Of a DNA stretch of 6,394 nt, positions 2,752-4,212 are shown in pieces; positions within the stretch are counted from its first letter, which is position 1, and each line of letters opens with the position of its first letter. The stretch comes from a virus (Duplodnaviria; Heunggongvirae; Uroviricota; Caudoviricetes): the IMG/VR virus record IMGVR_UViG_2740892370_000006, one strand, 5' to 3'. The translations under genes were made by a program, and so were the position numbers. The notes beneath the pieces are model-generated. The model was not told the origin of the DNA and did no database searches. It saw only the letters and a list, made by a program, of their open reading frames with translations.

Positions 2752-3263
2752 GCCGCGTTTCCTTCTTTCTTATTAACAATTACACCGTCATATATTTCAT
2801 TAAGGTGCCCTCTCAACTCCATGCGCCTTAATGCAGACAACATGTAATCGCATTCAACCTGCTTATTTCCAGTAAATGGCTTATCGTCAGGATTACCCCA
2901 ACAGCAATTACCCTTGGGCCACCCATGTACTTTCCGTACTCTTCCGTTAACAACGTGAAGTAATCCCCAGCCAGGAGGTAAATCCTCAATTGAAATAATT
3001 CCCGGCTCACTAATAAAGAATCGCCAGTCGCCCATTCCAAGAGACGGATTTTTACGAAAACGCTTTTTTCTATCTGCCAACAAGTCAGCACGAGAACATT
3101 TCGCCTCTATCAGGCATGATGCTGAATTTCTGAATCCCATAGCATCTGGCTGTTCTCCGGTACTGGTTACAGCTATAAAGCGGTCATGAAAACAAACCTT
3201 GAACCCGTTGCGCTTAAGGAACTTGTACGCAATCTGACAGAGTTCGCGGTGTGTTAACGCCAT
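2748..3263 (-). CDS. PD-(D/E)xK nuclease-fold protein (putative), 171 aa
   Basis: Start taken as ATG 3263..3261 ([10 protein letters not shown]...), with SD AAGGAGAG 4-5 nt upstream; the track's upstream Met at 3293 lies inside the preceding gene. Motifs in canonical order: Glu in the first helix ([12 protein letters not shown]), then GEQPDAMGF (PD), then CLIEAKCS (ExK). Confidence 0.65.
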
Positions 3264-3264
3264 A

Positions 3265-4212
3265 TCACTCTCCTTTGATGCGAATGCCAGCAAGCCAGTT
3301 TCTTATGCCGATATATTCAGCGTTCCTGAAACCGCTTTTTACATATATAAATGGCAAGCGAAGATTGTGACCATTGACTGCCAGGTAGTCTTTACAACCC
3401 TGTTCGGTGAAACAGCAGGTAACGAATTCATCAATATCTTTCACAGCAACGCGCCGCCATTTTTCTGGTGGCTCTCGAAAGTTTTCATGAAGTAGCTCGA
3501 GACGACGACTATGGCGTTTATTGGCTTCATTGCCATCTTCGTCAACCCAGACAATCCGGTCATGGTCATAATCAGCATCAACAACGATTTCGCGCTTTTG
3601 ATACACACAAAACATGGGATCTGACGTTATTCGATTGTCCTGTGTTCGAATATTTTCACCGATGATGCCAAACGAATCTGGTGCAGATTTTGTCTGCATC
3701 TCTTCGATACGTTCAGCCATCGCAGCACACTCTTCAAAGTTGCTTAATGCTTTTCGCTCCCATTCGGCGCATTGTTTTTCCAGTTCTGCTATGCGCTTAC
3801 TTCCATCCGCGATTACTCCCTCGTAATATTCACGCTGCTCGTTGAGTTTTGATTTTGCTGCTTCAAGCTCAACGCGCAGCTTCCCTACCGTTAGCGCAAT
3901 ATCCTCGTTCTCCTGGTCGCGGCGTTTGATGTATTGCTGGTTTCTTTCCCGTTCATCCAGAAGCGCCAGCGCAACATTTGGATTAAAGGCAGCAATAAAT
4001 TCAGCGTTTGCGTAAGCCTGAGCATCTGTTTCAACCAGGCAGTTAACATGACATTCTGCAATCACGCCACCGGGTTCTCCTTTCCATTTTTGACAAACAA
4101 AAACTCCTGTTATATTCCCATGCTGATTGCCCGATGTATGCCCTACGATGTAGCATCCTTTAGTTGCTTTCTCTGCTGCTTCACGCAGCGCCTGATAGTC
4201 AATCTCGCTCAT
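3265..4212 (-). CDS. Ea22-like prophage protein (conserved N-terminal domain, central coiled coil, variable C-terminal domain)
   Basis: 315-aa ORF. The N-terminus MSEIDYQALREAAEKAT... matches my memory of ead/Ea22-like proteins. The central ELEAAKSKLNEQREYYEG...ELEKQCAEWERKAL segment is coiled-coil-like. The ATG at 4212..4210 overlaps the stop of the upstream small ORF (ATGA). Confidence 0.75.
   Translation of the reverse strand: MSEIDYQALREAAEKATKGCYIVGHTSGNQHGNITGVFVCQKWKGEPGGVIAECHVNCLVETDAQAYANAEFIAAFNPNVALALLDERERNQQYIKRRDQENEDIALTVGKLRVELEAAKSKLNEQREYYEGVIADGSKRIAELEKQCAEWERKALSNFEECAAMAERIEEMQTKSAPDSFGIIGENIRTQDNRITSDPMFCVYQKREIVVDADYDHDRIVWVDEDGNEANKRHSRRLELLHENFREPPEKWRRVAVKDIDEFVTCCFTEQGCKDYLAVNGHNLRLPFIYVKSGFRNAEYIGIRNWLAGIRIKGE
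3269..3291. repeat. 23-bp junction cassette TCTCCTTTGATGCGAATGCCAGC (copy A), repeated at 5016-5038
   Basis: 22 of 23 identity with 5016-5038. Both copies begin exactly 5 nt from the complement of a minus-strand ATG (cat at 3261-3263 and 5008-5010) and supply its AAAGGAGA Shine-Dalgarno. Confidence 0.8.

Follow-up and report, generated by a model that had tools for sequence, protein, structure and literature searches.

The 6,394-nucleotide (nt) stretch of viral DNA analysed here (Caudoviricetes; IMG/VR record IMGVR_UViG_2740892370_000006), referred to below as the window, carries a 23-base-pair (bp) repeat at two gene junctions. In this study, we found that the repeat is probably a conserved gene-junction element, that is, a boundary or linker sequence, of temperate enterobacterial phages. 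The element recurs in many phages and Escherichia coli genomes and forms an island of conservation between reassorted flanks. The breakpoints of mosaic blocks lie at its edges, and a natural chimera of the two junction kinds of the window exists in ArgO145. From the sequence patterns we infer the recombination pathway, and that the motif is a cause of exchange rather than a marker of it.

Results

Two copies of a 23-bp motif stand 5 nt before start codons

The sequence TCTCCTTTGATG(C/T)GAATGCCAGC is present at positions 3269-3291 (copy A, TCTCCTTTGATGCGAATGCCAGC) and 5016-5038 (copy B, TCTCCTTTGATGTGAATGCCAGC), with 22 of 23 bases identical and one central mismatch that splits the copies into exact runs of just 12 and 10 nt. 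On the coding (minus) strand the motif reads GCTGGCATTCRCATCAAAGGAGA, or GCTGGCATTC(G/A)CATCAAAGGAGA when written with the variable base. The 23-mer was the top direct-repeat family of the window, its copies being in direct orientation and 1747 nt apart. When up to three mismatches were allowed, two matches were found in the window against 0.00 expected, and none of 200 dinucleotide-preserving shuffles of the window yielded any match. By our own estimate, the chance expectation for a 22/23 direct repeat in 6.4 kilobases is about 2e-5. The sites and the 22/23 identity agree with the original prediction, which had been made from the letters of the window.

On the minus strand, both copies are followed after 5 nt by an ATG, at 3263-3261 for copy A and at 5010-5008 for copy B, which is the distance that had been predicted. 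A predicted ribosome-binding site, AAGGAG, lies inside the motif 5-6 nt before the ATG, and a TGA is adjacent. This bears out the claim that the motif provides a Shine-Dalgarno sequence for both downstream genes. The flanks of the two copies failed to align outside the motif, as had also been noticed. The conserved unit is really about 31 nt long and consists of the motif, G, TGA, K and ATG. At copy A the full element occupies 3261-3291 on the minus strand (GCTGGCATTCGCATCAAAGGAGAGTGATATG; core, G, TGA, T and ATG), exactly the interval that had been proposed.

Core A (3269-3291, minus strand, GCTGGCATTCGCATCAAAGGAGA) has the CGC allele, the majority allele in the population. It covers the 3' end of an Ea22-like gene as far as the second base of the final Glu codon, including the seven complete codons before it. 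The base after the 23-mer completes the Glu codon and is followed by TGA, so that the open reading frame (ORF) at 3265-4212 ends in AGIRIKGE and a stop, as the prediction had it. Core B (5016-5038, minus strand, GCTGGCATTCACATCAAAGGAGA) has the minor CAC allele, which was found in 11 of 80 loci collected through the protein of the gene downstream of it, D0. Copy B is not translated as a protein tail and carries the predicted Shine-Dalgarno sequence of the gene starting at 5010. It is contained in the 57-nt leader (5011-5067) that precedes the D0 ATG, the two together spanning 5008-5067 on the minus strand.

The element recurs in phages and E. coli genomes with different neighbours

The original prediction had proposed a search for the 23-mer elsewhere and next to other genes. 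In a contig scan, the exact 23-mer was found in at least 120 viral contigs. Among the 123 exact occurrences listed, the upstream reading frame belonged to one of 12 protein classes and the downstream gene to one of 16 classes, with about 40 combinations seen. The position of the start codon among these 123 was always 5 nt past the motif (112 ATG and 8 GTG). Of 5426 complete E. coli genomes, 3068 contained the 31-mer formed by the motif and GTGATATG, which lay at 6703 places in all, 415 being on plasmids. Carrying genomes had a median of 2 copies and a maximum of 11. It was also present in 386 of 50,697 phage records, including P22-like Salmonella phages and many Shiga toxin (Stx) phages. HK620 has the element at its hkaG/hkaF junction.

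The P1-like phage-plasmids P7, SJ46 (a Salmonella phage) and RCS47 also bear the 31-mer. In P7 (locus L293, 88328-89531), the 516-nt coding sequence (CDS) upf89.0, which encodes 171 amino acids (aa), stands directly after an Ea22-like gene and begins at the ATG that closes the 31-mer. We liken it to D2, the gene downstream of junction A, by length and position, not by sequence. Because the 31-mer also occurs in these phage-plasmids, the linker appears to be common to lambdoid, P22-like and P1-like phages. In lambda, the element lies at the 3' end of ea22 (29839-29874; 1040-1075 of locus L122), which reads ...MMSDAGIRIKGE and then TGA. ATC is found where ATG is expected after the element, and about 190 nt without a gene follow. 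This looks like a junction whose downstream gene was lost. With one genome per species, the exact element was found only in Escherichia, Shigella, Shimwellia and one probably mis-binned metagenome contig. The search pattern was strict, and Salmonella copies known from phage records escaped it in the one genome that represented them.

A local duplication or a chance repeat confined to one prophage could account for just two copies in direct orientation 1747 nt apart, and this is all that the window itself contains. However, the shuffles produced no such repeat, and the motif lies at thousands of other places with different neighbours. The viral contigs, the E. coli genome counts and the 63 flank combinations described below refute this explanation, to which we assign next to no probability.

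The element is an island of conservation between reassorted flanks

To avoid selection through the motif, 80 loci were gathered via the Ea22 N-terminal domain and 80 via the D0 protein. In the Ea22-anchored set, the ending xGIRIKGE with GGCATTCGCATCAAAGGAGAGTGA(T/G)ATG was found in about 62 of 73 complete Ea22-like ORFs. The motif was directly upstream of D0 in all 80 loci of the D0-anchored set. A short conserved sequence was seen at the gene boundary in both window copies and in these 73 Ea22-like and 80 D0 loci, and the sequences on either side of it were unrelated in different phages. Among 34 unique Ea22-anchored junctions, the majority base had a frequency of 0.97 across the 23-mer and 0.85 across the 8 nt that follow, compared with about 0.5 in the flanks. 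The median pairwise identity was 0.32 upstream, 0.94 in the 31-mer and 0.27 downstream. That is, the flanks are about 30% identical, which is about the random level, and the 31-nt element is about 94% identical.

We then sorted the 115 unique junctions of all loci by the nucleotide sequence of their flanks and obtained 21 upstream and 22 downstream classes, which occur in 63 combinations. For 21 pairs of upstream classes, at least two downstream classes are common to both members. These four-gamete violations indicate that the flanks were exchanged repeatedly across the element. The spacers after the core (GTGATATG, GTGAGATG and GGAGCATG) mostly travel with the downstream gene and are occasionally swapped, while the first codons of the element (GCT, ACA and GCA) travel with the upstream gene. 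Such linkage with occasional swaps is expected if crossovers fall inside the element.

Breakpoints of mosaic blocks lie at the edges of the element

At copy A, similarity blocks that share only the upstream gene start at 3259-3261, and blocks that share only the downstream gene end at 3286-3291. The two kinds overlap by exactly 31 nt (3261-3291), since their ends sit at the edges of the element. At copy B, block ends were found at 5015 and at 5038-5040. The loci used for the breakpoints were largely chosen through the motif; in a phage-database search that was not selected in this way, the best hits stop at 5038. The gp18/gp17 junction of ArgO145 matches the window exactly on the upstream side of copy A, up to the end of the motif; past that point it is identical to the sequence downstream of copy B. 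A three-way alignment confirmed this switch. The ArgO145 junction is a natural recombinant of the two junction kinds of the window and changes from one to the other inside the motif. The breakpoints of mosaic blocks match the element at its edges and, in ArgO145, within it, which is the outcome that the original prediction had named as its second test. The linker reading that it had put forward is supported by the reassorted flanks, the edge breakpoints and the ArgO145 chimera, with the exchange itself as our reading of these patterns.

Block ends also cluster at two other places, 4164-4217 and 3697-4011. The first is the 5' end of the Ea22-like gene, where an ATGA overlap joins it to the stop of a 58-aa gene, and the second consists of sub-boundaries in the Ea22-like N-terminal domain. 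This suggests that both are further exchange zones supplying a second crossover.

Conservation probably acts on the nucleic acid rather than on the peptide

All Ea22 proteins have been reported to end in K/R-G-E, a feature to which the authors could assign no significance (Dydecka et al. 2020, PMC7093339). At copy A, the '+GE' combination of a PF13935 domain and a K/R-G-E end is present, with the protein ending in IKGE. At copy B it is absent, as the preceding gene is DUF977 and the tail is untranslated. We found the same tail at the end of a DUF977 protein, an HNH_3+AP2 endonuclease (L100) and one unassigned protein, none of which has an Ea22 domain. In the codons ATT CGC ATC AAA GGA, all variants are non-synonymous (Arg to His, Cys or Gly), and no third-position changes were found in these codons among loci with Ea22 N-terminal domains 75-99% identical. 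Moreover, the motif is kept where it is untranslated as a tail, at window copy B and in 47 of the 80 D0 loci. From the non-Ea22 carriers, the non-synonymous variants and the persistence in untranslated DNA, we argue that the constraint lies on the nucleic acid, and that the AGIRIKGE peptide would be a by-product of a DNA element. A conserved functional peptide as the explanation is weakened by the same three observations.

The 3' part of the element appears to be explained by translation, through the spacing of AAGGAG, a stop beside the start that would allow coupling, and open RNA. Three junction regions of 71 nt (both window copies and lambda) fold worse than shuffled sequences (z +0.9 to +1.1), in line with a translation start that is accessible. 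No translational role is known for the 12 nt upstream of the Shine-Dalgarno sequence, which are about 97% conserved.

The main rival explanation is purely functional conservation, in which the string is kept for the Ea22 tail peptide and the optimal coupled stop/Shine-Dalgarno/start signal that it carries. The different neighbours would then stem from illegitimate joins and later selection, and the motif would mark the junctions and not cause exchange. The reported K/R-G-E end of all Ea22 proteins (PMC7093339), the tail retained in about 62 of 73 complete Ea22-like ORFs, the canonical AAGGAG 5-6 nt before the ATG with TGA adjacent, and the unstructured RNA proper to a translation start are all as this explanation would have them. 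It does not extend to a tail that is found on unrelated proteins such as DUF977 and the HNH_3/AP2 endonuclease, that is conserved where untranslated, or whose core varies at non-synonymous sites only with invariant third positions, which is the opposite of peptide selection. Nor does it extend to the conserved 12 nt. Illegitimate joins would scatter, whereas the blocks end at the motif edges and ArgO145 switches inside. Functional conservation fits the sharp breakpoints, the variant pattern and the chimera poorly, and we consider it unlikely.

A short, sharply conserved element in a polycistronic early operon could also be a structured RNA or carry a transcription signal, for example a terminator, a processing site or a promoter cassette as in T4-type phages. 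However, the junctions fold more weakly than shuffled sequence and the flanks needed for pairing are not conserved, so RNA structure was rejected. No promoter-like or terminator-like site was found at either copy on the coding strand, and a promoter or terminator cassette was also rejected. We regard a signal of this kind as extremely unlikely.

The leader of copy B may be a relic of a longer tail

The leader of copy B consists of GAAATTAGCTATCAGGCTTCAATTACC and the motif, and it occurs with the same DUF977 end in 47 of the 80 D0-anchored loci. The -1 frame of the DUF977 gene runs through the leader as ...SEISYQASIT-AGIHIKGE, and the DUF977 protein of locus L019 continues in frame into a tail of this kind. 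Because of these two observations, the leader may be what is left of a longer tail module, or another way of reading one. The original prediction had placed copy B in a 57-nt spacer after the upstream TGA; the position holds, and the mere spacer gives way to a probable relic of a C-terminal tail. Among the junction classes, the upstream class with this DUF977-end leader is linked to D0 only.

The -1 frame of DUF977 is open past the TGA at 5068-5070 through ...SGGDTVNEISYQASITAGIHIKGEEHGNKTRR (window 5068-5100, minus strand). Entry into it is possible at a run of four T at 5086-5089 (GGTAATTTTCAGGAGG), as a frameshift relic or by programmed slippage. We rejected, as the main start of D0, the ATG at 5067, which abuts the DUF977 stop and would give a 137-aa ORF with copy B coding. 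Most relatives have GTG in its place, it is missing from loci in which D0 follows other genes, and both RefSeq and ArgO145 annotate D0 in its 118-aa form.

A model for exchange at the linker

The consensus of the element is GCTGGCATTCGCATCAAAGGAGA-G-TGA-K-ATG. We propose that it would close the upstream gene with the ...AGIRIKGE tail and the TGA stop, offer a strong unstructured Shine-Dalgarno sequence (AAGGAG) to the next gene, and place the next ATG 5 nt past the core. Since the same string stands between many unrelated gene pairs, co-resident phages and prophages share an identity patch of about 23-31 bp. A crossover in this patch would spare both the end of the upstream gene and the translation start downstream, and as both genes would be intact, the recombinants would be viable. 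Annealing recombinases of the Red-beta, RecT and Erf types, and less efficiently RecA, may use the patch. Exchange of this kind would reassort the variable C-terminal domains of Ea22-like proteins and the small accessory genes that follow. One crossover would fall in the linker and the second in another shared region, e.g. the Ea22 N-terminal or coiled-coil part, and repeated exchange may also homogenise the nucleotide sequence of the linker. Copy A is an intact junction from the Ea22-like gene to D2. Copy B would be an element left in a DUF977 tail that is no longer translated and would still serve as the ribosome-binding site of D0.

Minimal efficient pairing is 23-27 bp for Red-beta and 31-34 bp for RecA, and Rad52-like phage recombinases drive mosaic formation on short homologies (De Paepe 2014, PMC3945230). 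We compared 5152 pairs of junctions whose flanks are unrelated. Their longest stretch of exact identity across the motif had a median of 25 nt; 75% of the pairs had a run of 23 nt or more, 38% one of 27 nt or more and 14% one of 31 nt or more. The typical shared run of 25 nt falls within the Red-beta minimum.

The element might also be an attC-like or intron-less homing site and the target of a dedicated enzyme, for instance a site-specific recombinase or a homing-type HNH endonuclease. One carrier of the tail is the HNH_3+AP2 endonuclease gene (L100), in ArgO145 an HNH endonuclease gene lies two genes downstream from a junction, and the nucleotide conservation is sharper than in usual coding sequence. 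However, endonuclease genes adjoin about 1 of the 123 junctions listed, and no common recombinase or endonuclease stands beside the motif in lambda, HK620, P7 and the window. The repeat search of the window showed neither dyad symmetry nor an inverted repeat at the motif or next to it. Both the structured site and the linked enzyme gene of an attC-like or homing site are absent. In addition, the switch points vary within the element, as in homologous exchange. An enzyme target is very unlikely.

A stronger version of linker exchange, which we consider quite improbable, is that the element is an actively maintained gene-shuffling cassette, or 'cloning linker', whose sequence is selected for promoting the exchange of accessory genes among lambdoid, P22-like and P1-like phages, through a phage factor or as a preferred Red-beta/RecT annealing site. 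The Ea22 C-terminal domains would then be a cargo slot between the coiled-coil region and the linker.

Several points weigh against the element as a site of exchange. That crossovers fall within the motif is something we infer from patterns, and a useful translation-start cassette selected after imprecise joins could give part of them. With 23-31 bp the patch is barely long enough for efficient recombination, and on its own it allows one crossover, so a second homology is needed elsewhere. The window copies share merely a 12-nt exact run. Because the central mismatch leaves this as the longest run, copies A and B are probably poor partners and unlikely to recombine with each other; the deletion product, with the leader joined to D2, was found among none of the junction classes. 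Heavily sequenced, closely related E. coli prophages dominate the samples, which makes raw counts pseudo-replicated; unique junctions and classes were used in the analysis, without phylogenetic correction. Three of the four locus sets were picked via the motif or its neighbours. At the species level the exact element is confined to Escherichia/Shigella and Shimwellia, and with so narrow a range recent common descent contributes to its uniformity.

Genes at the junctions and their genomic setting

The Ea22-like gene upstream of junction A (3265-4212, minus strand, 315 aa) matches Pfam PF13935 over residues 2-145 (E = 3.3e-45), and its product is named 'ead/Ea22-like family protein' in RefSeq. 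Its N-terminal domain is conserved and its C-terminal domain is variable, with copy A as its 3' end. Upstream of junction B, the DUF977 gene (5068-5478, minus strand) matches PF06163 (E = 3.6e-72) and has its TGA at 5068-5070. The genes downstream are D2 at junction A (2748-3263, minus strand, 171 aa; PHROG 9263/631) and D0 at junction B (4654-5010, minus strand, 118 aa, MEIKPEDE...). Pfam and PHROGs gave no function for D2, D0, the 58-aa gene or a 114-aa gene. D0 has a CxxC and a CHH. The labels 'nuclease-like' and 'zinc-ribbon' in the original prediction were not upheld for these genes, as no Pfam match lay above the curated cut-off and the PHROGs are of unknown function.

RefSeq treats D2 as a frameshifted pseudogene that covers only 3085-3263, yet the ORF at 2748-3263 is intact. 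Its 171 aa equal the length of other members of the D2 class and of the product of the 516-nt CDS upf89.0 of P7.

The window is 100% identical to prophage DNA of several E. coli of the Shiga-toxin type, e.g. NZ_CP027219. The gene order there (locus L291, 2276398-2294791) is a cro-like regulator, YdaT, replication genes, DUF1627, DUF977, D0 and DUF7167, followed by the 58-aa gene, the Ea22-like gene, D2, the 114-aa gene, ParD/ParE on the other strand, DUF968 and RusA. The window region corresponds to the nin-like part of the early-right operon, with the replication genes on one side and RusA on the other, and not to the exo-xis region. In lambda, HK620 and Stx phages, the equivalent genes are in the exo-xis region of the early-left operon. 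As the Ea22-like junctions are early-right here and early-left in those phages, the element links the gene pools of two operons.

The 114-aa gene (2407-2751, minus strand) and many post-junction genes (loci L002-L121) start with MTT(I/F)T(K/D)(E/K).... This shared module could be extra 3' homology beside the linker or a second exchange point. The ParD/ParE toxin-antitoxin pair (1577-2202, plus strand) is moron-like, lying on the opposite strand within the leftward operon. An exact 14-nt direct repeat, CCGCCCCCTCTCTT, is present at 1809-1822 (inside parD) and at 2241-2254 (about 40 nt past the parE stop). About 0.08 such repeats are expected by chance.

Discussion

Targeted exchange at short linkers and random illegitimate joins followed by selection have been opposed in the debate on phage mosaicism since 1978. 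To our knowledge, clean and abundant examples of linkers are few. The element described here is a directly testable linker, being a defined 31-mer in more than half of the sequenced E. coli genomes and often carried by several prophages of the same cell (up to 11 copies). It explains the puzzling '+GE' end of Ea22 proteins as a translated DNA-level junction. For annotators, an AGIRIKGE tail on unrelated proteins would be a hitch-hiking linker. The element also bears on the trade of accessory genes between Shiga-toxin phages and resident cryptic prophages.

The T4-type phages offer one comparison. Arbiol et al. are said to have described in 2010 mobile promoter-early stem-loop cassettes that mediate modular shuffling in these phages. 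Like those cassettes, the element is a short conserved expression signal between accessory genes and would provide homology for gene gain, loss and replacement. However, the T4-type cassettes are a promoter plus a stem-loop, and the element has neither an early promoter nor a stable stem-loop; it is a stop/Shine-Dalgarno/start signal that overlaps coding sequence.

The '+GE' tripeptide of Dydecka et al. is the same feature at the protein level, where it follows unrelated C-terminal domains. The unit found here goes beyond it, as it comprises eight codons together with the stop, spacer and ATG at the nucleotide level. Unlike the tripeptide, it also occurs on non-Ea22 genes and where the DNA is not translated, which indicates an element of DNA or RNA and not a motif of the protein.

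Rad52-like phage recombinases have been described as a source of mosaicism through relaxed or short-homology recombination (Martinsohn 2008, PMC2327257; De Paepe 2014, PMC3945230). The mechanism proposed here similarly has phage recombinases act on short identical stretches within diverged DNA. Those cases concern diverged homologous genes with 'shoulders' of 64-80% identity, whereas the flanks here are unrelated and the identity is one discrete island.

The closest comparison is with the boundary sequences of lambdoid phages. The modular theory with linker or boundary sequences goes back to Susskind & Botstein 1978 and Botstein 1980, and short conserved boundary sequences in HK620 to Clark et al. 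2001 (all as cited in PMC3233612 and PMC2327257). The element resembles these in being short, in lying at a gene boundary in a subset of temperate phages with unrelated modules on either side, and in having mosaic transitions there. HK620, the phage of the boundary sequences of Clark et al., itself carries the element at hkaG/hkaF, and for this reason Clark et al. may well have listed it already. A full-text literature search for IRIKGE or the nucleotide string, beyond whose reach Clark et al. 2001 lay, returned unrelated primer lists only. Unlike earlier accounts of boundary sequences, the present one gives population-scale counts, with the element in more than half of E. coli genomes and in 63 flank combinations. 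It also goes beyond them in extending to P1-like phage-plasmids and to the early-right operon, and in tying the length of the element to the Red-beta minimum. The kind of element is already established. What appears to be new is its scale, its presence in P1-like phage-plasmids and in the early-right operon, the nucleotide-level account of '+GE' and the match of its length to Red-beta.

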